A model generated the notes under the pieces. That model saw nothing but the letters and a program-made list of their open reading frames with translations, ran no database searches and was not told where the DNA came from. DNA of 64,000 nucleotides from the IMG/VR virus record IMGVR_UViG_3300008113_000027, one strand, 5' to 3'. Positions 28,142 through 61,123 of this stretch are shown piece by piece (position 1 is the stretch's first letter; each line of letters begins with the position of its first letter). This DNA is from an uncultured virus (IMG/VR IMGVR_UViG_3300008113_000027). Taxonomy: Duplodnaviria > Heunggongvirae > Uroviricota > Caudoviricetes. The translations under genes and the position numbers were made by a program.

Positions 28142-28411
28142 ATGCAACTGAAAATTTCAGAAATCCTCAATGACTTGACTAATGGTCAAACAAGACAACA
28201 GATTAAAGAAAAGTACAATCTTAGTACTGCTCAACTTAAATCTGTATTTTCTCATCCACAACTTAAAGGTAGAAAGACTAAGAAAGTTGAACAACCTATT
28301 GACTTGTTAGATGATGTTACTCCTGTAAACAATCCTACACCTACAAATCAAGTAGTTGTTAATACTTCAACAGAAGAAGTAGAAACATATACCCCATTTG
28401 TAGAAGAATAA
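28142..28411 (+). CDS. Small putative HTH protein
   Basis: GQTRQQIKEKYNLSTAQLKSVF helix-turn-helix-like segment. Confidence 0.45.
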   Translation: MQLKISEILNDLTNGQTRQQIKEKYNLSTAQLKSVFSHPQLKGRKTKKVEQPIDLLDDVTPVNNPTPTNQVVVNTSTEEVETYTPFVEE

Positions 28412-29261: not shown

Positions 29262-30221
29262 ATGTATGGCTATCATGAAACACTAACAAAAGAAGAGATT
29301 TTCTTGAAAGTTAATCAAGAAGAAATCTTCAAGCATGTATTTGGAAATTTTCAGACTGGAGAATATATACAATCTCCGTTTAGAAATGATGATAGTCCAG
29401 GATGTTGGATTCAATGGCATAATGGAAAGTTATACTTTACTGATTTTGCATCATCTACAAGAACTGTAAATCTTGATATGATTGGTGTAATTCAGCTAAA
29501 GTATAATCTTTCCTTTAAAGAAGCCATAGATTTTATTGCAAATTTTAGATGCAGTAATGAGCCTGAATATCCAAAATACAATAAGGTATTTAGCAATACT
29601 AATTCAACCCTAATTGAGTTTTGTCCTAAACCATTTGATGATTATCATAAAACATATTGGTCACAATATGAGATAACTTCATCACAATTAATCCAGGATA
29701 ATATTTTTGCAACTAAATGGTATAAAATAAAAGATTCTATTTTTTATCCATTTCCAGCAGAAACAACTTATGCTATAAGTTATCCTATGGATGAAGTTAA
29801 AATATGCAGACCTAAAGTCAAAGCAAATAAATGGTTTACTAATACAACTAAGAATACTATTGGTGGTACTAAATCACTACCTTTTTTAGATAAGAATCTC
29901 ATAATATCCAAATCTTATAAAGATTGGAGAGTTCTAACTAATTTAGGTTTTAATGTAATCTATTTTCAAAATGAAGGTATGTTTCCCGATATGGAAAATC
30001 TTGATATATACATCAGGATGTTTGATAATGTATATGTCCTGTTTGATAATGATAAAACAGGAATTGAGGCATCTAAAAAACTTACCGATTATATTAACTC
30101 TGAGTATTCTGACAAATCTCAATCTTTACTTTTACCCACAACTCAAAAAGACCCTGCTGATGCTATAAAAGCAGGGAATAAAGAACAATTAATTAACTAT
30201 TTAAACTTTTTAAATTATTAA
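29262..30221 (+). CDS. DNA primase (TOPRIM)
   Basis: SPFRNDDSPG, KSYKD, FDNDKTG, KDPAD. Confidence 0.85.
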   Translation: MYGYHETLTKEEIFLKVNQEEIFKHVFGNFQTGEYIQSPFRNDDSPGCWIQWHNGKLYFTDFASSTRTVNLDMIGVIQLKYNLSFKEAIDFIANFRCSNEPEYPKYNKVFSNTNSTLIEFCPKPFDDYHKTYWSQYEITSSQLIQDNIFATKWYKIKDSIFYPFPAETTYAISYPMDEVKICRPKVKANKWFTNTTKNTIGGTKSLPFLDKNLIISKSYKDWRVLTNLGFNVIYFQNEGMFPDMENLDIYIRMFDNVYVLFDNDKTGIEASKKLTDYINSEYSDKSQSLLLPTTQKDPADAIKAGNKEQLINYLNFLNY

Positions 30222-30224
30222 AAA

Positions 30225-30857
30225 ATGAGAAAAATTAAAATTTATTCAACTGCAACAGGTATTGCAGTAGTAGAATCTAGTGCAACTAACTGGGGTCAGC
30301 TTAAAAATGAATTGGCTGACAAAGGTTATTCAGTATCTAACATGACAGCAGTTGAAAACAAAAACAATTCTAACTTAGAGTTAGATGAAGCTAATCTTCC
30401 TGATGGTGAATTTGTATTGATGTTAGCTCCTAAGAAAACTAAGAGTGGTGGATTATCTTATAGTGAGATAAGACTAAAGATTAAACAAGCATTTGAAGAT
30501 GATAAAGAAGCTGCTAATGAGCATTTTAATGTAGGTAAAAACTACACTAACAAATCTAAAGATGAGTTAGAATCTCTTTTGTCATCTTGGGAAAACAGAT
30601 ATGAAGAGGAAGATTATGATGACGATGATTATGACAATGAAGATGAAGAAGATGAATCTCACCTTTTAGAATCTGCTATAAATACATTACGTTTTAGTAA
30701 TCTGTATAAAGCAAGAAAAGATGATTTTGAACTTGCATTTGACCTCATCAATGGTCATGTATCTGCTGCTACTATTTGTAATTCTATAAATACAAAATCA
30801 GATTTACTTACAGATGAAGAAGATGCATGGATTAAAAGCATGAAAAATAGGATTTAA
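30225..30857 (+). CDS. Ubiquitin-like (beta-grasp) protein, GG at 75-76, with acidic C-terminal extension
   Basis: strand-strand-helix (TNWGQLKNEL)...LP.GEFVLMLAPKKTKSGG; adjacent to E2/JAB/E1 genes. Confidence 0.65.
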   Translation: MRKIKIYSTATGIAVVESSATNWGQLKNELADKGYSVSNMTAVENKNNSNLELDEANLPDGEFVLMLAPKKTKSGGLSYSEIRLKIKQAFEDDKEAANEHFNVGKNYTNKSKDELESLLSSWENRYEEEDYDDDDYDNEDEEDESHLLESAINTLRFSNLYKARKDDFELAFDLINGHVSAATICNSINTKSDLLTDEEDAWIKSMKNRI

Positions 30858-30871
30858 ATTATTTTCTAACT

Positions 30872-30902
30872 AAAGAGCCTGACTAACAATCAGGCTCTTT
30901 TT
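30872..30902 (+). terminator. Intrinsic terminator/attenuator after Ubl gene
   Basis: AAAGAGCCTGA/TCAGGCTCTTT plus T-run. Confidence 0.75.
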
Positions 30903-30915
30903 AATTTATATCTAT

Positions 30916-32121
30916 ATGTTAGGAATAGCATCATTGTTTTATAATAAACGTAATGTAGATTTAGATAGAATCAATAAATTATTGTATTACAAAACATTAA
31001 ATAAGAATTTATCAAACATATTTTGGTTTTACAACATCATCAAAGATGGATTAGACAAACAAGGATATGATTATGATATATATTTATCTTATGACTATGA
31101 TTCACGTATTCTAAAAGATGAATTTGCAGTATTAAATTATAAATTTAATATTAAGATTCCATTTAATTATTTTGAATATGATGAGCCAAATAGTGAGTTA
31201 TTTCATTACTTTCCTACATTAACTGTTGTAATACATTATCCTGAGTTGAAAGTTACTAATAAACTTAACAAGTCTATTCATATAACAGATATGTATGTAA
31301 AGTTTAGAATTAATCAAAAAGGTGATATGAATAAAAGAGGATTAGAAGGTAGAAGAGGTAGTTTTACAGAATTGCAACTTGAAAAAAATTACAGTCATTC
31401 TCATTTACCTTCTTCTGCTACAACTGGTTTTACTAATTTTTGTCTAGGTTCAGGTACTGATATTACTATGTCAATGATGATGTTATATGAGCAAGTATTG
31501 AATAAGAATAAAGAAGAAGTACCAAATGTATTTAACTTATTTCTTCTTAATCTTAAAGCATATTTGCAGTATGAGTCATTAGAGGGTGGACCATATATCA
31601 GAATGTCAACTCTTACAGATAGTGCAGCAACTAAATCATCAGTATTTGAATTGATTAACTTGGCTAAATACATTGCTAGACATATTGATAATAATGGTAC
31701 TCATTATTTTTTCTATTCATTAATAGATGAGTTAGTTAAAGAGAATGCTGTATTTCTTATTAATGAGCAGTTAGTATTTAAAGATGATTATTTTGAAAAG
31801 ATTTTAGTTGGATTACTTACTAAAAATCAATTTTCTTTTTCAAATTATCCATTTAGTTTCACTATTTATTGTAATGGGGAATTAGTAAATAAACTTGGCT
31901 CAGCAGATTTAATGTATAGAATCAAAGATAAGTATGTTTTATTTAAAAAGACTAAAAGACCTGTAACAATAACTAATGCATCACTAACTGATAGCTTTGA
32001 AGTTAAAGTTACTAAACCAGCACTTTGTTATATTTATAACAAGTTGAATGACAATCATTATTATTCTAAAATTCTAAATTATTTAATAAATGAAAAATAT
32101 CAAAAAGCTGAAACTGTATGA
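30916..32121 (+). CDS. Putative prokaryotic E2-like conjugating enzyme
   Basis: YSHSHLP...FTNFCLGSG, resembling the HPN...IC(L) E2 active site; gene context. Confidence 0.6.
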   Translation: MLGIASLFYNKRNVDLDRINKLLYYKTLNKNLSNIFWFYNIIKDGLDKQGYDYDIYLSYDYDSRILKDEFAVLNYKFNIKIPFNYFEYDEPNSELFHYFPTLTVVIHYPELKVTNKLNKSIHITDMYVKFRINQKGDMNKRGLEGRRGSFTELQLEKNYSHSHLPSSATTGFTNFCLGSGTDITMSMMMLYEQVLNKNKEEVPNVFNLFLLNLKAYLQYESLEGGPYIRMSTLTDSAATKSSVFELINLAKYIARHIDNNGTHYFFYSLIDELVKENAVFLINEQLVFKDDYFEKILVGLLTKNQFSFSNYPFSFTIYCNGELVNKLGSADLMYRIKDKYVLFKKTKRPVTITNASLTDSFEVKVTKPALCYIYNKLNDNHYYSKILNYLINEKYQKAETV

Positions 32122-33175
32122 TTTTGAATATACAATTCCTGTAAAACTATCTCATCTTGTTTGGGAAAAGATACAGTATTTATGTTCTCATATTAATACA
32201 GTAGAATGGAGTGGTTGTACATTTTATTCTATTGAAGGTGACCTTACAAAACCTGAAACTGTCTATATTAAAGTGGAAGATATGATTCCATTAGATAAAG
32301 GTAGTACAGGATTTACTGAGTATTCTTTTGACCAAAGAGTATTATCTTACTTAATGGAAAAAGACTATTTTCATTTAAAGATAGGACATCTTCATAGTCA
32401 TCACAACATGAAAACATTTTTTTCAGGTACAGACACAGATGAAGTAGTAGAAAACTCAGAACACATTAAGCCTTATCTTAGTATTATTGTAAACAATAGA
32501 CATGAATTCTCTGCAAAGATTGCATTTAGGATTAAAACAGTTACACCTACAACATTTGAGTTTCAAAACATTGATAATTCTATAACTACATTATCATCAG
32601 TAGAAGAAGATGAGTATGTAGGTAATTATAATTGTAAAATAGTTTTACCTGAAACTACTTGGAATGTAGATGAAACATTTTTAAATCAGTTTACAGCTAT
32701 TAACAAGCCTAAACCTGCTCCAAAGATTGATTTTTATAAACCTAAAGTAGGAAATGTTAAACCTAATTCTAAATACACTCAAACAGAGTTATTTGATGAA
32801 GCTAGTTGGTGGCAAGAGAATAATTCTATTCCTTCTGAAGGAGTTACTCCTCCTTGGTGGAATGCATCAGAACCATTGTTTTGTAAAATTCTAAGATTAG
32901 GTATGGATGTTCCAAATGATAATTTAGAACAAGCATTGGAAGATTTAGAAAATTCAGTAACTCAATCTAAAGATTTTAATTTAAGTAATTATGCTGCTTC
33001 TATAAAATCTAATTTTAAGAAATGGGTATATGAGTTTTATGAAAGACCATTTATTCTTAAATCTGAATTAGATGATACTTGGCAAGACTTTGTTGAAGAG
33101 TTAATGTTTAGTGCTGATGAATTTGTTGTGTTAAGTGAATTAATAGAATTATTAACAGAAGAAAACACATTGTAA
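32090..33175 (+). CDS. JAB/MPN+ metallo-isopeptidase
   Basis: EWSG and GHLHSHHNMKTFFSGTD = E...HxH-x7-S-x2-D. Confidence 0.88.
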   Translation: MKNIKKLKLYDFEYTIPVKLSHLVWEKIQYLCSHINTVEWSGCTFYSIEGDLTKPETVYIKVEDMIPLDKGSTGFTEYSFDQRVLSYLMEKDYFHLKIGHLHSHHNMKTFFSGTDTDEVVENSEHIKPYLSIIVNNRHEFSAKIAFRIKTVTPTTFEFQNIDNSITTLSSVEEDEYVGNYNCKIVLPETTWNVDETFLNQFTAINKPKPAPKIDFYKPKVGNVKPNSKYTQTELFDEASWWQENNSIPSEGVTPPWWNASEPLFCKILRLGMDVPNDNLEQALEDLENSVTQSKDFNLSNYAASIKSNFKKWVYEFYERPFILKSELDDTWQDFVEELMFSADEFVVLSELIELLTEENTL

Positions 33176-33176
33176 T

Positions 33177-33935
33177 ATGAGTAAAGACAGATTTAAAGAT
33201 GCATTGTGGTATAACAAGCCAGTAAGAATATTAGTATTTGGTGCAGGTGGTATAGGTTCTTGGACTTCATTCTTTTTAACAAGAGCAGGTTTTAATGTAT
33301 TGAGTGTAGATTATGACTTAGTAGAAGAACATAATCTTGGTGGACAAATGTTTTTACATCAGGATATAGGTGAATCTAAAGTCATTGCATTACATAATAC
33401 TATTGCTCTATTTAATGATAATGATTATTCATTTACATATAAAAATGAGAAACTTGTTCAAAGTACTAATTTAGATACTTTAATTAGTAGAATGGGAGGT
33501 TATGCAACTAGAGAATCTCCAGTTATAATAATTTCTGCATTTGACAATATGGAAGCTAGAAAATTATTATTTGAAAAGTTTCTTGCTTATTGTAATTCAG
33601 AATATTCTTCTGTAACTCCAGATAAAATTTGGTTTGTAGATGGTAGATTATTGATGGAGCAAATGAGAATTTATTGTATTCCTGGTAATAATCAACATTT
33701 ACAAATGGATTACATTGATAATCATTTATTTGCAGATTCAGATGTAGAAGATTTAATGTGTACAATGAAACAAGTATCTCATGGTGCAGCTATGATTGCT
33801 ACTCATATAACTGGTTTTGTTACAAATATCATCTCTAATGTTACAGAGTGGGATGATAATGTATTCAAGATTCCTTATATATGGGATTACATTATACCAT
33901 TCAATAAACTAACTGAAAACTATGAAGCACGATGA
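33177..33935 (+). CDS. E1-like ThiF/MoeB adenylating enzyme
   Basis: GAGGIGS, DYDLVEEHNLGGQ, KV, FDNMEAR, DGR, candidate catalytic Cys in LMCTMKQ. Confidence 0.9.
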   Translation: MSKDRFKDALWYNKPVRILVFGAGGIGSWTSFFLTRAGFNVLSVDYDLVEEHNLGGQMFLHQDIGESKVIALHNTIALFNDNDYSFTYKNEKLVQSTNLDTLISRMGGYATRESPVIIISAFDNMEARKLLFEKFLAYCNSEYSSVTPDKIWFVDGRLLMEQMRIYCIPGNNQHLQMDYIDNHLFADSDVEDLMCTMKQVSHGAAMIATHITGFVTNIISNVTEWDDNVFKIPYIWDYIIPFNKLTENYEAR

Positions 33936-34410
33936 TTTCAATGTTATATTTCCAAAATATGATGTTTATGTACCTGGTAGTACAATTTATGTAGATAAGT
34001 TTTTTAGTAGTGCAAATAACATTAATAACAATAGTAGTAGAAATGTATATATAACGAAAGTCAATAAAACATCTAGTGATAAAACATTGACAGCATTTTT
34101 TACAGGTACTTCTAAATTAGCTTATTTACCAAAAGAAGAGTTGTTTGTTACCAGAGGTCTTATACTTGATTCTTTAACATTAAATGTAGTAGCTCAAGTA
34201 GTTAACAAACATAAAAAGCAATATTTTATCAAGATAAAAGATTACCATTATTATAGAAACTCTTGTTTAGCATTGTATATTGATAAGAAATATACAGCTG
34301 ATAAAAAGTATTCTAAAGTTATGAATTATCTTTTATCTTTGAGTAAATATATTGACACTCACATTGTATCACAGGATAAATTACAACTAGTTATCAATGA
34401 ATCAAAATAG
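33922..34410 (+). CDS. Hypothetical protein overlapping the E1 gene end
   Basis: 162 aa; 14-nt overlap with ThiF gene. Confidence 0.5.
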   Translation: MKHDDFNVIFPKYDVYVPGSTIYVDKFFSSANNINNNSSRNVYITKVNKTSSDKTLTAFFTGTSKLAYLPKEELFVTRGLILDSLTLNVVAQVVNKHKKQYFIKIKDYHYYRNSCLALYIDKKYTADKKYSKVMNYLLSLSKYIDTHIVSQDKLQLVINESK

Positions 34411-34478: not shown

Positions 34479-35078
34479 ATGGCTAGAATTCCTAAAAACA
34501 TTAAAGTTCAAACTTTTATTTATACATTAGAGGACCCTGATACTAATGAAATAAAATATATTGGTAAAACTGTTAAACCATTAAAAACTAGATTAACAAA
34601 TCATATCTATTCTTGTAAAAGAGAAACAAACCATAGAACAAATTGGATAAAATCTATCATTAAAAAAGGTAAAAAACCTATAATAAAAATGATAGATTTT
34701 TGTTCTTGGGAAAAAAGTCAAGAATTAGAAACTTATTGGATTAATAAATTTAAAAATGAAGGAGCTAATCTTGTAAATTTAACTAATGGAGGAGAAGGTA
34801 ATTTAGGATTAAAACTTAGTAAAGAACGAAGAGATAAACTTACATTAGCTGTTTCTAAAAAAATTTACCAGTATACTTTAGATGGAATATTTGTAAAAGA
34901 ATTTAAAAATGCTGTTGAAGCTGCTAAAGAATTAAACTTAAAACATTGTTCTAAAATAAATGCTACTGCAAGAGGAGAAAGAAAAAAAGCAGCAGGATTT
35001 TTATGGTCTTATGTAAAAGTTGATTTTTTAGAAAAATACAAAAGTAAATATGAAAAATCAAGAGAAAAAAGTAATTAG
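34479..35078 (+). mobile_element. Free-standing GIY-YIG homing endonuclease with NUMOD1-like DNA-binding domain
   Basis: FIYTL.DP...IKYIGKT, R..NH, E.YWI, LVN; C-terminal IYQYTLDG.FVKEF...EAAKEL...AAGFLW; own TATATTTG promoter box near 34456. Confidence 0.85.
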
Positions 35079-39624: not shown

Positions 39625-40488
39625 ATGATAACTCAAACAATTAGAAAAGCATTAGATATAAAACCATCTGGAAGGAGTAGTGATTACATTACTCCTTCTT
39701 TTATTCATGGTTGTTTATTTAAATGTGGTTATTGTTATATGAGGAGGAATAAACCTGAAGGTATATCAATAGCTACAAATACTGATGAAATATTACAGAC
39801 TATATATAATCATGCTCAAACATTAGGTGTTAAAATACCTAATCAAACTCATGAAAATCTATGGACTTATGATATTTCTTGTAATGAAGATTTTGCACTA
39901 CATGCTAAATACCATGATTGGGAAAAGATATTTGATTTCTTTACTCAATCTGATTTACCTATAATGGGTACATTTGCAACTAAATATGTAAATGATAAAT
40001 TGTTAGATTACAATCCTGATAAAAAGATTAGGATTAGATTCTCACTTATGCCACAAAGTTTATCTGATATATTAGAACCAAACACTTCATTAATTTCAGA
40101 AAGAATAGATGCTATAAATGATTTCTACTATGCAGGTTATGATGTTCATATTAATTTTAGTCCTATTATAATTATTCCTGGAGCTAAATCTTTATATGAA
40201 GATTTGTTCAAAAAGATTGATTACTATGTGGATGATAAAATTAAAAATGATATACTTGCAGAATGTATTATGCTAACTCATAATAAAGGTATGCATGAAT
40301 ATAATTTAGAACATAATCCTGAAGTAGAAGAATTGTTATGGAATCCTGAAGTACAAGAAGATAAAACATCATCTTATGGTTCTAAGAACATTAGATATAA
40401 ATGGCAGTTAAAGAATAGGTATATATCTGATTTTGTAAAACTACATGATGAGATAATTCCCTGGAATAAAATTCGTTACATTTTTTAA
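39625..40488 (+). CDS. Spore photoproduct lyase-like radical SAM protein
   Basis: GCLFKCGYCYM (CxxxCxxC), DISCNED, FATKY, RIRFSLMP, NFSPII. Confidence 0.8.
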   Translation: MITQTIRKALDIKPSGRSSDYITPSFIHGCLFKCGYCYMRRNKPEGISIATNTDEILQTIYNHAQTLGVKIPNQTHENLWTYDISCNEDFALHAKYHDWEKIFDFFTQSDLPIMGTFATKYVNDKLLDYNPDKKIRIRFSLMPQSLSDILEPNTSLISERIDAINDFYYAGYDVHINFSPIIIIPGAKSLYEDLFKKIDYYVDDKIKNDILAECIMLTHNKGMHEYNLEHNPEVEELLWNPEVQEDKTSSYGSKNIRYKWQLKNRYISDFVKLHDEIIPWNKIRYIF

Positions 40489-50608: not shown

Positions 50609-53600
50609 TTAAATACCACATTCATTATTTTCTGAAGTCCAATCTTCTTTAGGTTCAAATGATTTACCTCTTGTGTCAAATTTAAGAAAAGATTCAAATT
50701 CTGCACCTTCATTTTCTTGTTTTAATACATTACTTGCATTCTTGTTAGATACAATTACAGCTTTATGTCTTGGTCTTGTAACTGCTACATATAAAGATTG
50801 GTTTTTAGTTTTAATAGAAGCATCTTGTACACCAAGAATATTGTCTTCCATTACATACACATTGTTATAAGTAGAACCTTGAGATTTATGTGAAGTAATG
50901 GCATAACCATAATCTGATTTTACATGTTGGTCTTCATTACCCCAATACACATCCCAAGAACTACCACCTACTTTAAATGCATTGTCTGCATTATTTTTTT
51001 GTAGTTCAGCATACTTTTGTTTTACTTTAGGAGAAAGTACTTGTATAGTAACCATTTCTCCACTTTCATTTTGAACTCTAAGAGAATAGCCTGGTAAAGA
51101 TACAACACTTGTTGAAAAGTCATTATTAAGTTTATTGAATTTTATATTTACAGGAGTAGAATTTAATACAACATATTGTTCTCCATTAAAAATATTAGCA
51201 CTAGCTACTAATGATTCTTCTTTAGTATCTTCATTAATAAGTATTTCTCCTTTATTAAATTCATTAGTATTTCCTTCACCCCAAAGAATTTGTCTTGCAA
51301 GATTATTCATACTATCTTTTTCAGCATTAGTGAAGCAAATAATCTTAGTGTTTTCTTTATCAGATTGTAAGTCTTTAGTAAGTTGAGGAACCATTGATGT
51401 TTTAGTTTCAAACAAAGTACCTTTATTTTTCTTTTCATCAAACTTATTTTTTCTATCTGTAATAACTCTTAATTCAGGAGTAGCACTTTCTACATTTGCT
51501 GCAATGACATCACTTAATGCTACAATAGGAGAATCTTCACCTTGACGCATTCTTTCTGTAAGTGTAGCAGTATATTCAGGTTTAGTGTTAGCAGTAAATG
51601 ATACTGAATCTTTATTTTGTAAACTAGCATTTTCTTCAATAGGTGGTAATTGTACATTATCACCCATAAAAATAACTTTTACATTTGGATTTCTAGAAAA
51701 ATTAATAATGTCTGACACCATACTTTGAGTAAGCATTGAACATTCATCAATGATAATTATATCAGCATTATAAAATGGTGAGTTTTCTTTTTTAAATTTA
51801 GGGTCTTTTTCAAATACTGATGGATTATTTCTTTTAGGTTTTAACCCTATTGCTGATGCTATAGTTTTTACTTGAACTCCATTACCCATAGATAGCTGAA
51901 GTATTCCTTTAGCTTTATGAGATATAGTAGCTGCTGCAACTGACTCTCCTTTAAGACCTTCTAATATTTTTTTGATAATAGTAGTTTTACCTGTACCACC
52001 TCTACCTTTAAGTACAAATACTTGTCTTCCTCTATCTTTAACAAAACTATTAAGTTTTTCTATTGCTTTAGTTTGTCCAACATTAGCATTTACTCCAGGA
52101 AACAATTGTACTTTTTCTCCTGCTTTTGATTCATTAATCATATTATCTGTTTCTGCAAGTTCATTTTCCATATCTGCTAATGTACTATCACTCATTCCAA
52201 TTTCTATTTGAGATGCTGTTGGTTCAGGTTCAACTTCTTTTTTTCCAATAGCTTCTAATAGCTCATCCATATCAGTAGCATTTGTTTCACTTAACAATGC
52301 TTCTACATAATCCTGATGTGCAGAAAAGAATTTTAATTGGTTATCAGTAACACTTGCTTCATTTAAAAACTTAACTATTTTAGGATAACCATTAAACTGT
52401 GAATAATCTATTTCATCTGGAAATGTTACTTGTTCTGGATTATCATTAAGTAATTGATTTTCACTATTAATAAGTGCAGCTAAATTAGTTTTAACTTTAC
52501 TATATACTTCTTGATTTAAATCTGTTTGAGTAGTAGGTGTAAACAAATCTAATATCTCTTTTTGAGTAACTCTTGAACCAGTATTTACATTTAAAACTTT
52601 ATTATCTATTTTTACATACTCTTGTTTATTAAATATTTTAGTTTCAAAGTTATTAGCTTTAGCATAAGCTGCTAATACTTTATTGATTTGAGTTTCATTA
52701 GTTTCTACTTTATCACCAGCTTTAGCATTGTGAATAACTTCACCTGTACTTGGATTATAAGTATAAGTAAATTGGTCTACTTTAGTAATAAATGATTTTT
52801 CAGATGTAGTACTAGGTTGAGTAGTTATATTATTAACAACTTCATTATTAGTTTGAGTAGTTGTAGTAGGTTTAGAAGATTGATTTATTGGTATTACAAA
52901 ATTTTTATCTTGTACTAATTTATTTCCTGTTATATATTGATATGCTTTATTAAAATATTCAAACAAATTACCTCCTATTTCATCTTTAATATTATAAATA
53001 TCTTCTGGTGTAACATTTCCTTGCTGTGCATTTATTTGTTCCCAAGCTTCTGCACCACTAACATTAGTGTTTATATAAGATTTATTACCACTATATATTT
53101 TTCTAATTTCATTTAATCTTTCTGTAAAAACACCTGTAGGTTTAGGCATCTGTATTTCTTGAATAGCAACAGATTGAGTAGTTGTAGTAGGTTGAGTTTG
53201 AGTAGGTTTACTATCTTCAATAAGTTGGAATATATTTTTAATAGCATCATCTGTAAGAGTACCTTCTTCTATACCAATAGCTTCTAATACTGATTTGATA
53301 AAGTTTCTTAACTTATCCATCAATGTAGTATTAGAAGAACCTATTTTAATTTCACTCATTGCCTGTTGGAATTCAGGTTGAGTCATAATCATTTCAATAA
53401 ATTCTTTAATATTTACAGTACCATAAAGTATTCTTTTTTCTTCTTTATCAAATCCTACTTTTTCACCTTGTTGAAGTCTTTCAAACTTTTCAAGCATTGA
53501 TTTATACTTAGCAGCATACTTACCTGTACTCAATGCAGTTTGTGCCCTTTTATATAATACAATAATTTCTCTTGCTGCTTTAGCTCCAGGTACACCATCT

Positions 53601-56600
53601 TTAGGTTCAAGTTGACCTTTTGAATCAGTATGATTAAGTATAAGTTGGTCAGTAACTGAATGTACAGTTTCTTTTAAAATAGTTCTTGCAAGCATTTCAT
53701 CAGATGCTTCTTTAGCATATTGTCTATCAATTTGAATTACACCATTTTGATAAGTACCATTACTTTCTAAACCATCAACTACTTTGATTACAGTATTAGG
53801 GTCAACCTTAGATATAAGTTGTTTAAGAATTGTAGTTATGTTAGCAGGAAGATTATTTGAATTAACTATATTTCTAAGAATAGTAATAAAATTATCTTGA
53901 CCTAATCCAAATCTTTCTTCATTTATAAGTTTAGAAACTGCATCATCATTTTTAGGTTCACTAACTGGTGGTGGAGCAATATCTCTTACTCTACCTTTAC
54001 TTATTTGTCTTTGTTGTTGATTAGGATTTATATCATAAGCAAATACTTTTTGTCCTTGATTACCTTTACTAACTGCTACTGCTAATGGCTTATATTCATT
54101 TCCCATTTTTATCCATAGGTAATCTTTACCTTTAACTCTATGTGCAATAAAGTTAGGAGCATTAGTTGAATTATAACCTGCATTAGTTATAGTTATATTT
54201 GAACTTAATACTTTATTAGCTTTACTTTCTTCCATTAATAGTTTAGGAAGTGAAGTAGGATTATTTCTTGCAAATTGAATTGCAAAATCACTTGGTGCAT
54301 TTTCTTTAAATCCAAATATATTTGTAGTGTCATAGTTTATATCATTAAGTGCTTCAGTAAATCCCATTTGTTCTAAATAACTTATAGGAATAAACTTAGC
54401 AAATTGAGTAGCTTCTTGTACACCACCTTCTAATAATGCATAGTTAATTAAATCTTGTGCAAGTTTTTTAGCACTATATATTTCTCCATTAAATGCAGGG
54501 AGTACAAGGTCAGTACCTAATAATTCTAATAATGCATTATTTAATCCATCTTCATCAAAGTTAGCACCAGCAGTATTCTCATATAAAATCATAGATGGTT
54601 TGCCAGTATAATCAATATCATAGGCAAATCTTTGTATGAGTTTATTACTTTTAAGTTGAGGAAATTTATTTGCTACATCAGATAAATATTTTGCCAAAGA
54701 TACTTTACCAGCTTTTTTATCATCATACATTAATCTATATCTTTCTTCAGTAGCTGTTCCTGATTTAATAAGATTTTTCTGAGTCATTACTGCATTAAAA
54801 TACTTCTTAATTTCTTTAAGTACCATGTGTTGCTTCTCAGCTTTTTTAGCTTCACTTGCTTCACTCTTACTTACTAATTCCATTACTTCAGTTATAGCTT
54901 TATTAATAGAATCTTTATTGTATGGAAAATGTTTTTCCCATAAGTTATTAGCAGTAACTAATGCATTTAAAGATACAGCACCAATTGATGTTGTAGGTTT
55001 AATCATTAACTGATTTGTAATAGGAATAAATCCTTCTTTTATTTTTTCATCATATTCTTTTTTAGTTAAATTGTCAGTCATTAAATAATCACCTATTAAT
55101 TGGTCAGCATTTCTAATAGAGTCATTACTTACTAATGCTGTTACAGTTTTAATCTTTTCTCCTATTTCAGGAATTGATTTACCTAATCCTTTAGAGTCTG
55201 TATTAATTGCACCCTGTACACTTCTTAATGCTAATCCATATTGTTTAAGCATTAAAAATCTATTTAATGCTATAATTTGTAAATGATTATTAGTTTTATC
55301 CTTTGTTGATTTTTTAACTAACTCATTATACATTTCAGATGTAGTGAGTTTACTACCATACTCACTATCAAACTCATAAGCATCTGGTGCATCTCCTAAT
55401 ATTTTTAATGTATTTGGTTCAAAATACTTTTCATAAAGTTTTTGTATTACTTCAGCTTCTGCATTTGGATTATAACCTTTTATGTTAGAAGTAGCTTTAC
55501 TCATTTCAACTACATAATCTTTAATGATTGGTTGAGATAAGAAAAGGAATGATATAGAATTACCATCTTCTCCTTTATCAAATCCTAACATACACAATAC
55601 TTTATCTACATCCATTGTATATGAGTTAAGATTTACTTTACCCATTACTTGTAACTTCTCATTATCTACTGCAATGTTTTGTCTTTCAGATAACACTTCT
55701 GCAATAGGTCTTTGAAGATTATTATAATCATTAAGTATTTGTTTTAATTCAGGATAGTTTTCTGTTTGTCCTTCAAATACTTGAAGTCCTGTTGCTTCAT
55801 CACTTTTAAGTAATTCAGTAAGATTATCTAATACAGTATCATTTCCATTTAAATCATTTAATCTTGCAATAAAATAATCTTTTTTAGATACAACTTTAGC
55901 ATTAGCTTCTCCTAATTTACCATTAGTGCTAATTGAACCAAATGACATTTTAAAAGGAAATCCATTGTTCATTAACTCTAATTGTTTACCATTAGCTTTA
56001 GCTTGTTCAAATAATGAATGAGAAGTAACATCTAATGAGTATGCACCTGTACCTATTTTACCACTTGCACCTAATGCCATTTTTTGTTTCTGATATTCAT
56101 CAGACAATGGGGTAAAATATTCATTAGTACTTGAATTAACATCATCAATCATTTTTGCTTGGTCTTCAGCATAATCTGTTGATAATATAGTATTAATTTT
56201 CTTTTGTACAGAAGGTCTACTATTACCAAATACAGCTAAGTGTATATTAACAAGCTTATTTTGAAGAAGTTTTTCTTTGATGTTTGATACCTTATCTCCT
56301 GCTTTAATAGGTCTAAATTTACCATCTTCATCTTGGGTATGCCATAATTGATAACTACTTAGTTTATCAACGTCAAAGTCTTGACCCATTTGTTTAGTAA
56401 AGTTCTTAGGGGTAATAATTAAATCACCATTTTGAGCTGGAAGAAATCCTGCAATAGTAACCTTAGAACCTGACATGTGACCTGATGTAGGAATCCTAAA
56501 TGTAATCATGTCTAACAATTGTTTGTCAAACATTTTTTCATTTAGTTGAAATCCTTTGTCAGTTTTAATTACATACTTATAATTTTTTCCATCTTTATCT

Positions 56601-59600
56601 AGTTCTAATAAATCAATTAACTTACCATCATTATCCCTAAACTTAGATGCAACTAATATTTGAGCTGATTTAAGATTATTTTTTTCATCATAATTAGCTG
56701 CTTGTAGTTCTCCATTGAATTCATTATTCAACCAAACTATTTGACTTTTGTCTATACCTGTAAAATCATTTTGAATTTTAAATCCTTCTTCAGAACCTGC
56801 AACATAAGCATTACCAGGTAATTTTACTTTAACAAGTCTGTTATTTACAACAGCATTAAATAGTGCTTCAATTCTATTTGAATTAGCACTCATCCATAAA
56901 GGAAGTTTAAACTTATAATCTACTATTGTTCCATCATTACCATAGACAAATTCTATTTCTAATCCATCTATATCTTGTTTAGACCAACCTCTATCTAATG
57001 CTTCTTCTCTTAAAAGTTTTTGAAGTTTAAGTGCAGTTTCTTTTACATCAATAGGTTGATTAGTTTTTTCATCAATACCTAATTCACTATATAGTTTTTG
57101 TTTCTTTAAATTGTAAAGTTCTATAAATGTTTCATTATATATCTCTTGAAGTTTTTTACCTGAGTAAGATGTACCATCCATTATAAATCCAGACTCATCC
57201 ATCATACCATTACCAAATAAAACTTTAGTAAGCTGAGAACCTAAAGTAGTTGTGTCCTCAGTTCTTTTACCTGATTTAAATGGTACATCTTGTTGTATCT
57301 TAAAATCTTTTCTATTTAAAACTAATGATGCACTTTCAAGTTCTTTTTGTGTTATGTTTTTAATTTTACCTGTACTATCAAACATTTTTAATGGAGCACT
57401 TAATGCTCCTACTTTATTTGCAGTTTGATATGATGCTCTTACAAATCCACCTTTTTGAAAATCCTGTAATGCTATTCTAAGTTTATCTAATTCAGTACCT
57501 GCTGTCATTTGAGGAATAAGAGGAAATGAAGATGATTTAATATACATCATTCTCATTACTCCTTGTTCTTTATCATATATTTGACCAGTATATACAGGCT
57601 TAATAGGTTGAAGCACTTTAGCAAAAATTTCTTTTTGAGCATCAGTCATTTTTTCAAAAGGAATATTTTCAGTAAATATTTTTTCAGCTTCTTTTAAATC
57701 TTCATCTGTAAGTGAAAGTACTTTATCAGAAGTTTTACCCATTTGTTTAAGTACATGTAAGTGTTCTTGCCATGTAGTATACTCTTGAGCATCAGTAGAT
57801 TCTATATCAAAATATCCTGCTGATTTAGGATATTGTTCCATAAACTTATCATACTGTATTTGTTTTTCATCTGGATTTTCAATACTCATTATTCTACTAT
57901 ACCCATCAGCATCAAACTCTTTACCATCTAATACTTTAGTAAGGAATCCAATGTTTTGAGAAACAGAAACTCTATCTGCTAAAAAGACTTGATGATAAGT
58001 TTCATTTTTAGATTCTGCTAATTTAGAACCAGGAGCTATCATAGCTGCTAACCTTTTACCTACATTGATAAAAGTTTCTTCTGATTGTTTAGTATAACTT
58101 TCTTTAGAGTCAGCTTTATAATATAAAGCAGGGTCACCAATGATAGTCATATAAGCATTAGCATTACCAATCATTTGATTGATAACATAATCAAATGCAA
58201 TTACATTTAATTTAGTATCATTTGTTAATTCATTCTTTTTGTCAGTATCTGTAACATAAGCAGTATCAAAAAATTTAAGTTTTAATTCACCACTTTCATC
58301 TATTGTGGCTAACTCATTATCTTTCCATACTTTCATTTTATTATTTACAAGTTCATTAAGATACTTGTTTATTTCAGGATATATTTGAAGTTTAAGTTCA
58401 TCATTAAGTTTATCTATAGTAAAGGTACTTGAGTTTAAAAGAGAGTTTAAACTACCTTCCCACATAGTGCCATCATTTAATTTATAACTAACTTTTAAAT
58501 CATTAAGCTTGGGTAAAAACATTAACATTTTTTTACCTTTATCATAACCTTTTATATTAGTAGTTTTAGGTGTTTTTGTTTTTTTATTTCCATTAGAATC
58601 AACAATTCTTTCTATTTCAGGTAATACTAATTGATTAAATAATAATCTTAATACTTCAGGTTTAGCTTCAAGTGTTTTTGTTTCTTCGTTATAAGTATAA
58701 TAAGATATATCATTTAACTTAAACATTGGTGCTTTTACAGTAACCATAGTTGACTTATCTGACATAGTTGGAAATAACATAGATGCTATTCTCATTGGAA
58801 ACTCTACATTATCAACCCTATGAGTTACTTTAGTACTACCTTGTTTCATGTCCATAAACATTGCTAACTTAACAAGTTCATGGTCAGCATCTGCTAAACT
58901 AGTAATACCATTATCTTTAAATATTTTTTTACCTGCTTCTTTTAAAGCATTTAAATCTAAGTGTGAAATACTAAATGCATTAGGTAATGCACTATTATCT
59001 AACCATTGTAACCATGCTGCGTGTTTAGAAAATGCAAGACTACCTAATTGTTCTCTAATATCTCCAGCATTAGTTTTTAAATCTACAAATCTATCAGTAA
59101 CATACTTGTATGCAGTATAACCATAAATAGATTTTTTACCTGACCTAAATGAACTTGTAGCTACATTTTCTACATATTTAGCTTGAAACCTAGCTAAACC
59201 ATTTTCAATTGCATTATCTCTAAATGGATGATTACCTTCAAGTTCAGTTGGTATAATCATACTGTCACTATTAACAACAGTTTTTAACCAGTTAGCAAGA
59301 ATACCAATGGGTTGATGAGCTTTATCTGTACTTGCAAAAAATTTATCAGGAGTAAGTTTTGTATTTTTATCTACATAGTATTGACCACTAAGTATTCTAT
59401 GTATTGCATTAGGATGCATATCAATACCAAATGATTCTAACCAAGTTAATACTGTGTCAACTGCTTCAGCTTGTTCATCAATACTCATGTTTGAGTATTC
59501 CATAATAGGAACATTCTTACCTTCTATTGGAATATTTTTAACTTTTAATGCTCTACTAATAGCAGGAGTTGTAGGTTTACCAAGTGTATATTTTAATTTA

Positions 59601-61123
59601 CCATTTATTTTTTCAACTCTTAATTCTTTAGTATCATAACTATCTTCAATCTTATTATTGACTGAATATTTTTTTACTTCTCCTTCTTTAAAATCATCAG
59701 GATTAAGACCTAATGTTTTAATTGTTTTTCCATCTTTTACTTCTAAATCTTTATCTTCACTTATTACTTTTTTTTGTAAATCTAAAAGACTTCTTGTAGC
59801 TGATGATTTTAAATCTTCAGGTGAATTATCAAACCAAGACTGGTGTTCTTCTAACAATCTTAATGCTTCATTTTTATTTGCAAAGTATTGTCCTGTTTCA
59901 GCATCAGCATCTACTAAGTCAGTACCTAAAAATTCATTTCTCCAATTAGATAAAGTTTTTCTTCTAAGTTCTGCTGAATTAGTATTCATTACTTTTGCAG
60001 TAAGATTACCATCTTTATCAAATGAGTATTGTACAAAATGCATTGTTAGTGCATGATTACCCATTACATGTAAGAACTGATTTTTAACTTGACCATTAGC
60101 TTTTTCTAACCTATTTACAAATTCATTCATCCAAGGTCTTACATCAGCATTCTCTCTTAAGTGAGCTACAGCTTCATCAAAAGTAAATGACTTATCAGCC
60201 ATCAATGCAATAACAGTATCAAACACAGTATCAAATTCTACAAATGCAGGAATACCCATTACAGTATTCATAGGATTACCATCCTTATCTGTAAGAGGAA
60301 TACCTCTCATCAACATTCTTAGTTCTTTTCTAACTGAATTCTTTGGATTTTTTTCTAAAGATGTTTGAGAATAATTTTCATCTCTTTCACTATTTGTTTC
60401 TTCAAAATCTGTAATACTATCTTCTGATGATTCTTCTTCCATATCTGCTATTTTAGAAGTATCATCTGCTTCTTCTACTTTTGTTTCAGTAGTACCATCT
60501 TCATTAGTTATAGTGTTAACTTTAATATTAGCAAATTTATATAGCTTCTGTAATCCTACATCAGCAATCATATCAAAATTATCTTTAACTAATTTTATTT
60601 TTTCTTTAGCTACTTGAATTTTCTTAAGATTAAGTTGAACTACTTTATCATCAGGTTTACCAATTAAATTTAATTTTTCTGCAAGTTTATCAAGAGTAGC
60701 TTCATAACCATCTAACATACTTTCAAGTTCTTCTTTCATAGAAGCCTTAAGAGTTCCTTCATTTGTTATTGATTCTGCATTTACATTAAAACTTTTTGCA
60801 GCAGTTTCAGATACATAATTAGCAAAGTAATTAAAATGATTATTATCTAATCCAGCAATTTTCATTAACTGTTTAGTAATTTCATTTCTACTTTCTTCAC
60901 TTATCTCTTTTGGTTCAAAAGATTTTTCATCTTCATCTAATTGAACATTATATTGATTTAAGAATCCAAGTAAAGCATCAGCTTGTTTCATTACAATATT
61001 ATAAGCTTCAATAGAATTTTGTTCTGTTTGAGCTGCCTTATAATTATTAAATGATGCTTCTACTAATCTTTTAAATTCCTGTTCAGAATATTCTTTACCA
61101 TTATAAGTGATAGTACAAATCAT
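50609..61123 (-). CDS. Virion DNA-dependent RNA polymerase (crAss-like) fused to SF1 (RecD/Dda-like) helicase
   Basis: FRIPT and GQDFDVDK (56366-56380), AVDNEK; C-terminal GRGGTGKT, DECSM, GDNVQLPP, HKSQGSTY, YVAVTR. Confidence 0.88.
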   Translation of the reverse strand: MICTITYNGKEYSEQEFKRLVEASFNNYKAAQTEQNSIEAYNIVMKQADALLGFLNQYNVQLDEDEKSFEPKEISEESRNEITKQLMKIAGLDNNHFNYFANYVSETAAKSFNVNAESITNEGTLKASMKEELESMLDGYEATLDKLAEKLNLIGKPDDKVVQLNLKKIQVAKEKIKLVKDNFDMIADVGLQKLYKFANIKVNTITNEDGTTETKVEEADDTSKIADMEEESSEDSITDFEETNSERDENYSQTSLEKNPKNSVRKELRMLMRGIPLTDKDGNPMNTVMGIPAFVEFDTVFDTVIALMADKSFTFDEAVAHLRENADVRPWMNEFVNRLEKANGQVKNQFLHVMGNHALTMHFVQYSFDKDGNLTAKVMNTNSAELRRKTLSNWRNEFLGTDLVDADAETGQYFANKNEALRLLEEHQSWFDNSPEDLKSSATRSLLDLQKKVISEDKDLEVKDGKTIKTLGLNPDDFKEGEVKKYSVNNKIEDSYDTKELRVEKINGKLKYTLGKPTTPAISRALKVKNIPIEGKNVPIMEYSNMSIDEQAEAVDTVLTWLESFGIDMHPNAIHRILSGQYYVDKNTKLTPDKFFASTDKAHQPIGILANWLKTVVNSDSMIIPTELEGNHPFRDNAIENGLARFQAKYVENVATSSFRSGKKSIYGYTAYKYVTDRFVDLKTNAGDIREQLGSLAFSKHAAWLQWLDNSALPNAFSISHLDLNALKEAGKKIFKDNGITSLADADHELVKLAMFMDMKQGSTKVTHRVDNVEFPMRIASMLFPTMSDKSTMVTVKAPMFKLNDISYYTYNEETKTLEAKPEVLRLLFNQLVLPEIERIVDSNGNKKTKTPKTTNIKGYDKGKKMLMFLPKLNDLKVSYKLNDGTMWEGSLNSLLNSSTFTIDKLNDELKLQIYPEINKYLNELVNNKMKVWKDNELATIDESGELKLKFFDTAYVTDTDKKNELTNDTKLNVIAFDYVINQMIGNANAYMTIIGDPALYYKADSKESYTKQSEETFINVGKRLAAMIAPGSKLAESKNETYHQVFLADRVSVSQNIGFLTKVLDGKEFDADGYSRIMSIENPDEKQIQYDKFMEQYPKSAGYFDIESTDAQEYTTWQEHLHVLKQMGKTSDKVLSLTDEDLKEAEKIFTENIPFEKMTDAQKEIFAKVLQPIKPVYTGQIYDKEQGVMRMMYIKSSSFPLIPQMTAGTELDKLRIALQDFQKGGFVRASYQTANKVGALSAPLKMFDSTGKIKNITQKELESASLVLNRKDFKIQQDVPFKSGKRTEDTTTLGSQLTKVLFGNGMMDESGFIMDGTSYSGKKLQEIYNETFIELYNLKKQKLYSELGIDEKTNQPIDVKETALKLQKLLREEALDRGWSKQDIDGLEIEFVYGNDGTIVDYKFKLPLWMSANSNRIEALFNAVVNNRLVKVKLPGNAYVAGSEEGFKIQNDFTGIDKSQIVWLNNEFNGELQAANYDEKNNLKSAQILVASKFRDNDGKLIDLLELDKDGKNYKYVIKTDKGFQLNEKMFDKQLLDMITFRIPTSGHMSGSKVTIAGFLPAQNGDLIITPKNFTKQMGQDFDVDKLSSYQLWHTQDEDGKFRPIKAGDKVSNIKEKLLQNKLVNIHLAVFGNSRPSVQKKINTILSTDYAEDQAKMIDDVNSSTNEYFTPLSDEYQKQKMALGASGKIGTGAYSLDVTSHSLFEQAKANGKQLELMNNGFPFKMSFGSISTNGKLGEANAKVVSKKDYFIARLNDLNGNDTVLDNLTELLKSDEATGLQVFEGQTENYPELKQILNDYNNLQRPIAEVLSERQNIAVDNEKLQVMGKVNLNSYTMDVDKVLCMLGFDKGEDGNSISFLFLSQPIIKDYVVEMSKATSNIKGYNPNAEAEVIQKLYEKYFEPNTLKILGDAPDAYEFDSEYGSKLTTSEMYNELVKKSTKDKTNNHLQIIALNRFLMLKQYGLALRSVQGAINTDSKGLGKSIPEIGEKIKTVTALVSNDSIRNADQLIGDYLMTDNLTKKEYDEKIKEGFIPITNQLMIKPTTSIGAVSLNALVTANNLWEKHFPYNKDSINKAITEVMELVSKSEASEAKKAEKQHMVLKEIKKYFNAVMTQKNLIKSGTATEERYRLMYDDKKAGKVSLAKYLSDVANKFPQLKSNKLIQRFAYDIDYTGKPSMILYENTAGANFDEDGLNNALLELLGTDLVLPAFNGEIYSAKKLAQDLINYALLEGGVQEATQFAKFIPISYLEQMGFTEALNDINYDTTNIFGFKENAPSDFAIQFARNNPTSLPKLLMEESKANKVLSSNITITNAGYNSTNAPNFIAHRVKGKDYLWIKMGNEYKPLAVAVSKGNQGQKVFAYDINPNQQQRQISKGRVRDIAPPPVSEPKNDDAVSKLINEERFGLGQDNFITILRNIVNSNNLPANITTILKQLISKVDPNTVIKVVDGLESNGTYQNGVIQIDRQYAKEASDEMLARTILKETVHSVTDQLILNHTDSKGQLEPKDGVPGAKAAREIIVLYKRAQTALSTGKYAAKYKSMLEKFERLQQGEKVGFDKEEKRILYGTVNIKEFIEMIMTQPEFQQAMSEIKIGSSNTTLMDKLRNFIKSVLEAIGIEEGTLTDDAIKNIFQLIEDSKPTQTQPTTTTQSVAIQEIQMPKPTGVFTERLNEIRKIYSGNKSYINTNVSGAEAWEQINAQQGNVTPEDIYNIKDEIGGNLFEYFNKAYQYITGNKLVQDKNFVIPINQSSKPTTTTQTNNEVVNNITTQPSTTSEKSFITKVDQFTYTYNPSTGEVIHNAKAGDKVETNETQINKVLAAYAKANNFETKIFNKQEYVKIDNKVLNVNTGSRVTQKEILDLFTPTTQTDLNQEVYSKVKTNLAALINSENQLLNDNPEQVTFPDEIDYSQFNGYPKIVKFLNEASVTDNQLKFFSAHQDYVEALLSETNATDMDELLEAIGKKEVEPEPTASQIEIGMSDSTLADMENELAETDNMINESKAGEKVQLFPGVNANVGQTKAIEKLNSFVKDRGRQVFVLKGRGGTGKTTIIKKILEGLKGESVAAATISHKAKGILQLSMGNGVQVKTIASAIGLKPKRNNPSVFEKDPKFKKENSPFYNADIIIIDECSMLTQSMVSDIINFSRNPNVKVIFMGDNVQLPPIEENASLQNKDSVSFTANTKPEYTATLTERMRQGEDSPIVALSDVIAANVESATPELRVITDRKNKFDEKKNKGTLFETKTSMVPQLTKDLQSDKENTKIICFTNAEKDSMNNLARQILWGEGNTNEFNKGEILINEDTKEESLVASANIFNGEQYVVLNSTPVNIKFNKLNNDFSTSVVSLPGYSLRVQNESGEMVTIQVLSPKVKQKYAELQKNNADNAFKVGGSSWDVYWGNEDQHVKSDYGYAITSHKSQGSTYNNVYVMEDNILGVQDASIKTKNQSLYVAVTRPRHKAVIVSNKNASNVLKQENEGAEFESFLKFDTRGKSFEPKEDWTSENNECGI

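Follow-up and report, generated by a model that had tools for sequence, protein, structure and literature searches.

The locus described here raises the question of why a crAss-like phage should encode a ubiquitin-like protein (Ubl) that runs on beyond a conserved glycine, and of why a hairpin should stand between its gene and those of the enzymes expected to act on it. The window, i.e., the whole 64,000-nucleotide stretch of DNA analysed, lies within an 85.7-kb virus record in which genes for the major head protein, the portal and the terminase were found, and among annotated phages it is matched best by Flavobacterium phages of the Fpv3 type and by Steigviridae such as crAss001. On the + strand, the replication module is formed by an SSB-like gene (a label assigned from position and codon use), a gene for a DNA primase (positions 29262–30221; phrog_12622, E 5e-46), a 210-aa gene, a hairpin, and ORFs of 401, 361 and 252 aa, in this order. 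A preliminary description of the region proposed that the 210-aa ORF (30225–30857), which starts 3 nt downstream of the primase gene, codes for a pro-protein from which a JAB protease exposes a di-glycine and releases a second, acidic product, and that partial termination at the hairpin gives an excess of modifier over enzymes. The sequence elements of this proposal are all present, namely the ORF, Gly75 (codon 30447–30449) and Gly76 (codon 30450–30452) within the motif KKTKSGG, the helical segments, a tract with 15 acidic residues out of 19, and a hairpin with a T-run between the Ubl and E2 genes; the interpretation placed on them is, as a whole, partly supported.

The fold of the N-terminal domain was assessed from an AlphaFold2 model of the precursor (mean pLDDT 79), in which a beta-grasp occupies residues 1–74. 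With the Ubl model as the query, Foldseek ranked ubiquitins first, at a probability of 1.00 and with E values of 1.5e-3 and up (all above 0.001), and VIA gave a Z of 8.1 and an rmsd of 2.0–2.1 over 68–71 aligned residues, in rows that span residues 1–74. These model comparisons support a ubiquitin fold for the domain formed by residues 1–75 (30225–30449, + strand), which ends in K-T-K-S-G75 and is the predicted mature Ubl. Prok_Ub was not among the 25 families, of 106, listed for 148 members of the Ubl family, and the window protein itself had no match; SAP-domain matches in three of the 148 members were discarded, their best stretch falling on the Ubl helix and not on the second domain.

A profile search (E 0.001 or better) places 2102 clusters at 50% identity in the Ubl family. 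The 150 relatives aligned here are the top-scoring of the 2102, and counts among them are for this reason biased toward tailed forms. Gly75 is invariant in all of these best 150, with Lys at position 73 in 144 and Ser or Ala at position 74 in 149. Position 76 is variable (Ala in 60, Ser in 15, Gly in 13, Val and Leu in 12 each, and ten others, among the same best-scoring relatives), and Gly76 (30450–30452) is likely the first residue of the released product. As judged from this alignment, the conserved end of the Ubl is K-S/A-G, with a single glycine, and the di-glycine is a coincidence of the window lineage.

The tail that follows Gly75 is 135 residues long, and after Gly76 the model has helices at residues 79–92, 94–101 and 112–123, and then at 145–156, 165–175, 181–191 and 197–209. 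Both the alignment and the model point to a conserved three-helix domain at residues 79–122 (30459–30590), marked by F101, N106, Y107, T108, L115 and L118; among the best-scoring 150 of the 2102 clusters, F101 is conserved in 147, T108 in 148 and Y107 in 136, and the domain has a median net charge of +1. It had no match in PDB sequences, Pfam or the ESM Atlas, and looks helix-extension-helix-like by eye only. The acidic tract is a D/E-rich, low-complexity linker (residues 126–144; 30600–30656) with a pLDDT under 50 at residues 127–142, and the protein closes with a helical hairpin, a short linker and a C-terminal amphipathic helix (residues 145–210 and the stop codon; 30657–30857), which appear in the model and follow a weakly conserved pattern. 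Some relatives are without the helical domain, and in these a tail of 64–76 residues remains. Of four RNA runs, all contig-level, one contained 7% of the sequence words and none gave real cover; the sole pile-up, at 30601–30656, was dismissed as low-complexity acidic sequence of other organisms, at less than 90% identity, and is uninformative on expression. In the phage cr126_1 (MT774391; L111:5501-6427), the linker between the Ubl and the tail holds a C-terminal domain of ribosomal protein bL12 (PF00542, E 5e-12, residues 158–220), which is known from other work as a mobile domain that enters phage proteins (PMC6375957).

A cut after Gly76 that exposes a di-glycine and frees an acidic DNA mimic would suit the window copy, with its tail net charge of −19, and its close kin, which share Gly75-Gly76 and the tract with 15 acidic residues in 19; tails are, moreover, net negative in 98 of the best-scoring 150 relatives. 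However, few of these relatives have Gly76 (see above), and the equivalent linker, which ranges from 0 to 85 residues among the best 150 of 2102, is acidic in 10 and net positive in 87 of them; a tract with at least 16 acidic residues per 19 is present in two, and one with at least 12 in 12. A DNA mimic should present a conserved, structured acidic surface, whereas here the acidic tract is unstructured in the model and not conserved, and tail-less relatives retain the entire enzyme set. Such a course of events appears very improbable and, because the acidic tract is a linker peculiar to this lineage, the DNA mimic of the preliminary description has to be given up. Since the tail is modular, able to stand alone and missing from some relatives, we regard it instead as an accessory passenger of the Ubl; judging from its anatomy, it would be an accessory protein present in large amounts, produced 1:1 with the tag and most likely serving as an adaptor that binds DNA or the replisome.

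Relatives in which the Ubl and the passenger are not joined bear on where the precursor is cut. Among 12 short homologues, nine stop one residue past the glycine (this residue being I, K, N, I, N, C, Y, C and A, respectively), three stop 6–20 residues past it and none stops on it, the copy at locus L106 being the only one whose end was confirmed against DNA. The stop codon lies one residue past the glycine in L106 and three past it in L093, and both loci retain the hairpin and the E2-like, JAB and E1 genes. The one-residue extension of the tail-less relatives resembles the pattern of BilA, described as being cut by BilC between Gly97 and Ala98 (10.1101/2023.09.26.559546). The Ubl of cr106_1 ends two residues past the glycine and is followed by a NUMOD4-HNH gene and then by a 130-aa gene that has a start of its own. 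The product of the latter matched a profile of eight related tails over positions 24–137 of 138 at 43 bits (next best, 2) and was also found by BLASTP (E 1e-8), whereas hhalign of the family alignment against this single tail gene was not significant; the natural split gene comes from this one genome. An intron that re-joins the Ubl and tail genes of cr106_1 was considered and set aside, as an Rfam search of the locus gave no match, an undescribed intron being still possible. The junction between Ubl and tail is precisely where the NUMOD4-HNH endonuclease gene is located, and the tail gene precedes the hairpin (MT774378; L110:5501-6704). No displaced tail gene was found for tail-less phages in five and two records, mostly fragments and searched with no positive control, and a search for proteins of 30–75 aa gave one match.

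A predicted complex of JAB (residues 8–190) with the precursor (residues 1–124) scored 0.79, whereas none of three controls exceeded 0.00; the mark used for such scores was reached by 116 of 157 solved pairs and by two of 215 mismatched pairs. At least 84% of the contacts were common to the model runs, with a partner pLDDT of at least 84, and the interface brings JAB residues E39, H102, H104 and D115 to residues 68–77 of the Ubl, with no residue past 77. The model does not discriminate Gly75 from Gly76 in the window copy and, because JAB–Ubl complexes (BilC–BilA) have already been solved, it may pass by likeness to them. Sequence comparison supports a Ubl made with a blocked C-terminal glycine, and the predicted processing after Gly75 is well supported by the tail-less relatives, the split gene of cr106_1 and the JAB model together. 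Since the passenger, fused at an invariant glycine, is a separate gene in a relative, the neighbouring JAB likely cleaves the precursor. The pro-protein of the preliminary description therefore stands as regards the blocked glycine, the intact JAB residues and the predicted binding of JAB, but not as regards the di-glycine end (Gly76 in 13 of the best 150 of 2102); its second product is backed by the separate tail gene of cr106_1 but loses its acidic character (linker acidic in 10 of the same 150).

The first gene behind the hairpin (30916–32121, + strand, 401 aa) codes for a putative diverged E2/UBC-fold protein with an additional C-terminal half, in which S162-H163 and Cys176 are invariant (51/51). 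Foldseek, Pfam, PDB-sequence and Atlas searches gave no identification. In the model (pLDDT 80), VIA over residues 31–235 matched mostly UBC folds, at Z 5–6, including BubB (9eav, Z 5.9) and Cap2, while the top row was a non-E2 protein of the THO complex (Z 6.4). The putative E2 assignment is drawn from these middling Z scores. At one locus (L104:4296-4510), a group I intron that itself contains an ORF splits the E2-like gene inside the HSH motif, and a tandem pair of E2-like genes is present in a 142-kb phage whose Ubl extension is three residues (L093:4019-6092); by eye, the first gene of the pair does not have HSH at its usual spacing and lacks the ESLEG motif. The next gene (32090–33175, + strand, 361 aa) codes for a JAB/MPN metallopeptidase with an acidic helical C-terminal region; E39, H102, H104 and D115 are invariant in 44/44 homologues, the match with Prok-JAB (E 0.0067) falls under the cut-off, and crAss001 gp77 is annotated as a metalloprotease. 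In Fpv1, Fpv2, Fpv20, FpV21 and FPSV, unlike the Fpv3 layout, the JAB match is divided between two sites separated by about 1 kb, which suggests that the JAB gene of these phages is interrupted by an intron or intein. The third (33177–33935, + strand, 252 aa; ThiF PF00899, E 9e-16) codes for a single-domain adenylase of the E1/ThiF family, with nucleotide-binding residues and Cys195 invariant (34/34) and UBA5 as the closest solved relative (E 2e-13). In crAss001 and its kin (L002:8545-9702, L101, L103), the E1 has an acidic N-terminal extension of about 150 aa, which is missing in the window E1.

By analogy with the Bil and Bub systems, the phage JAB would cut the precursor after Gly75, the freed tag would be adenylated by E1 and handed on in a thioester relay from Cys195 of E1 to Cys176 of E2, and would finally be joined to target lysines by an isopeptide bond. 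The passenger would be freed 1:1 with the tag, as a small helical domain, a flexible linker, a helical hairpin and a terminal docking helix. By this comparison the cassette would work like Bil in its chemistry and like Type I Bub in the cutting of a fusion, yet it fails the features that define both of these systems and PRTRC. The likeness to Type II BilABCD lies in separate genes for the Ubl, E2, JAB and E1 (each an ORF of its own in the window, as in the listed loci), a cysteine-based E1 and, as predicted for the phage protein, E2, and one conserved glycine masked by non-conserved residues, which JAB removes in Bil and would remove in the phage (10.1101/2023.09.26.559546); the catalytic Glu and the HxH...D motif of JAB are also common to both. 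However, BilA is described with at most nine residues past the glycine, against the 135 with folded domains found here, so that only tail-less relatives of the window Ubl come within the Bil limit, and BilD is of IAD-AAD-CYS architecture, against a single 252-aa adenylation domain (10.1101/2023.09.26.559546). As to the Bil-type E2, Cys176 is invariant, but the UBC matches stay at just Z 5–6 and do not display a superposition of Cys176 on an E2 cysteine. Bil is, in addition, a bacterial anti-phage system, whereas the phage cassette is part of a replication operon (10.1101/2023.09.26.559546).

With Type I Bub (BubAB, BubCD and BubE), the cassette would share a Ubl fusion that JAB is described to cut right behind a conserved glycine, the release of a second folded protein and a minimal E1 of the homodimeric type (PMC11601596). 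In Bub, however, the released protein is the E2, JAB is fused to the E1 and oxyesters are formed through Tyr or Ser (PMC11601596); the phage precursor would release a non-enzymatic helical protein, its E2 and JAB are separate genes, and invariant Cys195 and Cys176 are present. The Bub-type DUF6527 had no Pfam match among 13 neighbouring sequences. PRTRC, or operon type 6d, resembles the cassette in its genes for a Ubl, JAB, an E1-like and an E2-like protein, in a fast-evolving helical protein and in its association with mobile DNA (PMC1779556). The NCBIfam models TIGR03735 and TIGR03736 scored far below their cut-offs (13.5 vs. 101.8 and 36.4 vs. 144.75, respectively); the type 6d E2 is described with a conserved His after the Cys, whereas in the phage protein HSH comes before it, and the type 6d helical protein is a separate gene, whereas the phage version is normally fused behind the Ubl (PMC1779556).

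The single ThiF-like domain of the E1 and the location of the cassette among DNA and nucleotide genes would also fit a processed Ubl that acts, like ThiS, MoaD or Urm1, as a carrier of sulfur or another group for nucleotide or DNA modification instead of as a protein tag, and JAB trimming of sulfur carriers has been proposed (PMC1779556). Against this, a UBC-fold protein with an invariant cysteine always lies between the Ubl and JAB genes, and sulfur-carrier pathways are described as having no E2-type UBC protein (10.1101/2023.09.26.559546); UBA5 is the closest solved relative of the E1, and neither a rhodanese nor a desulfurase was found among the genes scanned, which cover part of the genome. 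We regard a carrier role as improbable and protein tagging as the better account.

The cassette of Ubl, UBC-fold protein, JAB and E1 is crAss001 gp79–gp76. In crAss001 and in Fpv3 (ANB40457–40454) the orthologous genes come in identical order, with the hairpin behind the first, under annotations that are merely hypothetical, metalloprotease or thiamine-biosynthesis ThiF; the gp79 linker is rich in Lys and Glu, as opposed to acidic in the window protein. The gene order is common to Fpv3, crAss001 gp80–76, cr126_1 and DAC15, and in Fpv3 a uracil-DNA glycosylase gene precedes the Ubl gene. E1 and JAB are present in 74 records of cultured or complete phages, including the model gut phages crAss001 and DAC15. 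When 185,579 cellular genomes were searched with the JAB alignment, two weak matches were obtained, both on short contigs, so that as far as sequence searches go the cassette is nearly absent from cellular genomes. Behind the E1 gene, an ORF at 33922–34410 (+ strand) has homologues in the same place in close loci; it had no match in family searches and is a candidate for a fifth component or a target-selection factor.

This distribution invites the view that the pathway is directed at the host, tagging its defence proteins or acting as a decoy or de-conjugase against host systems of the Bil or CBASS type: the cassette is confined to phages apart from the weak matches just described, the known bacterial Ubl pathways are described as anti-phage (PMC11601596), and the tails and the C-terminal half of the E2 diverge fast among relatives. 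Yet gut and freshwater phages alike have the four genes in a constant order within the replication operon, and PADLOC gave no match for the Ubl, E2 or JAB. Counter-defence genes are patchy in distribution. We therefore consider a host-directed role unlikely. Because the cassette is fixed inside a replication operon, our best guess is that the tag is placed on proteins of the phage replication compartment, the weakest step of the mechanism proposed here.

The hairpin itself (30872–30900) has 11 pairs and a 7-nt loop and leads into a T-run of five that ends at 30902. Its energy is −15.8 kcal/mol (z −5.95; none of 200 shuffles equals it), and it comes first in the list of six terminator-like sites between 26000 and 38000 (shuffle mean 2.4). 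A stem at least as stable as −10 kcal/mol, followed by T-rich sequence, lies directly 3' of the Ubl gene in 56 of 60 distinct loci, a count that overstates independence because the loci are related; the hairpin of the preliminary description is conserved in position. The same filter gave 2/56 after E2 and 6/53 after JAB, where overlapping genes leave no space for a hairpin, 1/47 after E1, 0/60 before the Ubl and 2/60 in shuffled sequence. With a relaxed filter the hairpin is found in 59 of 60 loci, with 49 different stem cores. It keeps to the Ubl gene whether the primase gene (28/60) or another gene lies immediately 5', and in cr106_1 it sits after the separate tail gene. In cr106_1, cr126_1 and DAC15 it is the sole such hairpin within 12–13 genes; in the window module, eight of 38 ORFs have such hairpins behind them. 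The T-run counts at least five in 48 of 59 loci and at most four in 11, and the next ATG is 8–29 nt from the stem (median 16). With a stable stem, a U-run and a conserved position, the element has the marks of an intrinsic terminator, and it is likely a leaky terminator or a 3' processing site. TAnnTTTG is the Bacteroidota promoter consensus. The motif was found before the Ubl in 4/60 and before E2 in 4/59 loci, below background, and a peak near −2400 was rejected as a promoter, as it falls in coding DNA. Because the next ATG is so close and no promoter motif stands out, the enzyme genes are probably reached by read-through.

Codon usage suggests that the Ubl is highly expressed. Across loci, the fraction of C-ending Phe, Tyr, Asn and Ile codons is 0.30 in the Ubl and 0.28 in the SSB-like gene, against 0.20–0.23 in the E2, JAB, E1 and primase genes, and the Ubl score is above that of E2 in 41/46 loci, of JAB and of E1 in 33/46 and of the primase in 37/45. 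In the genome that contains the window, the scores are 0.32 for the major head protein, 0.24 for the Ubl (from few codons) and 0.12–0.15 for the enzymes. An excess of modifier over enzymes is only indirectly supported by these figures. Since the hairpin separates all upstream genes, the primase included, from the downstream ones, its presence alone cannot set the Ubl apart, and since the primase, also upstream, has low-expression codons, it is not the sole cause of an excess of Ubl. Its main function could then be RNA processing or 3' protection, or a damping of E2 translation, with mRNA stability and translation accounting for the excess of Ubl; the low expression suggested for the primase, the few promoter motifs before the Ubl, the short T-runs (five in the window) and the closeness of the next ATG would agree with it. 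We find this somewhat unlikely, as a stem with a T-run is the canonical shape of an intrinsic terminator, the run counts five or more in most loci and the site is the only one of its kind over a dozen or so genes in cr106_1, cr126_1 and DAC15. A leaky terminator would let only part of the transcripts into the enzyme genes.

On balance we think it likely that the locus makes a Ubl ending in Gly75 and a 135-residue passenger that JAB cuts apart, that E1 and E2 relay the Ubl to lysines, and that the hairpin limits the transcripts of the enzymes. That phages of the crAss001 and Fpv3 types own a complete pathway in which the precursor is split into a tag and an adaptor, the replication compartment is built or remodelled through conjugation of the tag and the stoichiometry is set by the terminator is a wider proposal, which we put forward tentatively. 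The characterised bacterial Ubl pathways compared here (CBASS Cap2, Bil and Bub) are host-owned, and here a phage carries the full kit among its replication genes. UBA52 and RPS27A are eukaryotic fusions of ubiquitin with ribosomal proteins. If the proposed reading is correct, one gene would give two products with an exact cut site, as in those fusions, and the standing annotation as thiamine biosynthesis would need correction. The same logic, by analogy only, applies to the ubiquitin-fold fusion fau-eS30, whose abundant C-terminal extension is described as freed by a deubiquitinase (PMC6375957); the passenger is without homology to ribosomal proteins, save for the bL12 domain in the linker of one phage. 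As two products and an exact cut are predicted, and tail-less and split-gene relatives offer natural controls, four purified proteins would suffice to put the claim to the test. The cassette is not described in the literature searched, which was mostly non-subscription: one study is silent on it in the main text, and in its supplement a single contig carries the labels 'ThiF family' and 'MPN, metalloprotease' (PMC7886860), while a 2026 preprint reports a gut-phage family resembling UBA5 (10.64898/2026.03.05.709809).

Several other genes of the window were recorded in passing. Upstream of the SSB-like gene lies a gene for an 89-aa protein (28142–28411; phrog_16221), with a 123-nt A/T-rich gap ahead of it and its own terminator-like hairpin just behind, and a GIY-YIG/NUMOD1 homing endonuclease gene (34479–35078) lies between the cassette and a resolvase-like gene. 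A 287-aa ORF (39625–40488) has a CxxxCxYC motif, is radical-SAM-like by eye and gave only a weak PHROG match; we take its product to be presumably like spore photoproduct lyase. On the − strand, a 3504-aa virion protein (50609–61123) carries a Dda-like helicase domain near its C-terminus.
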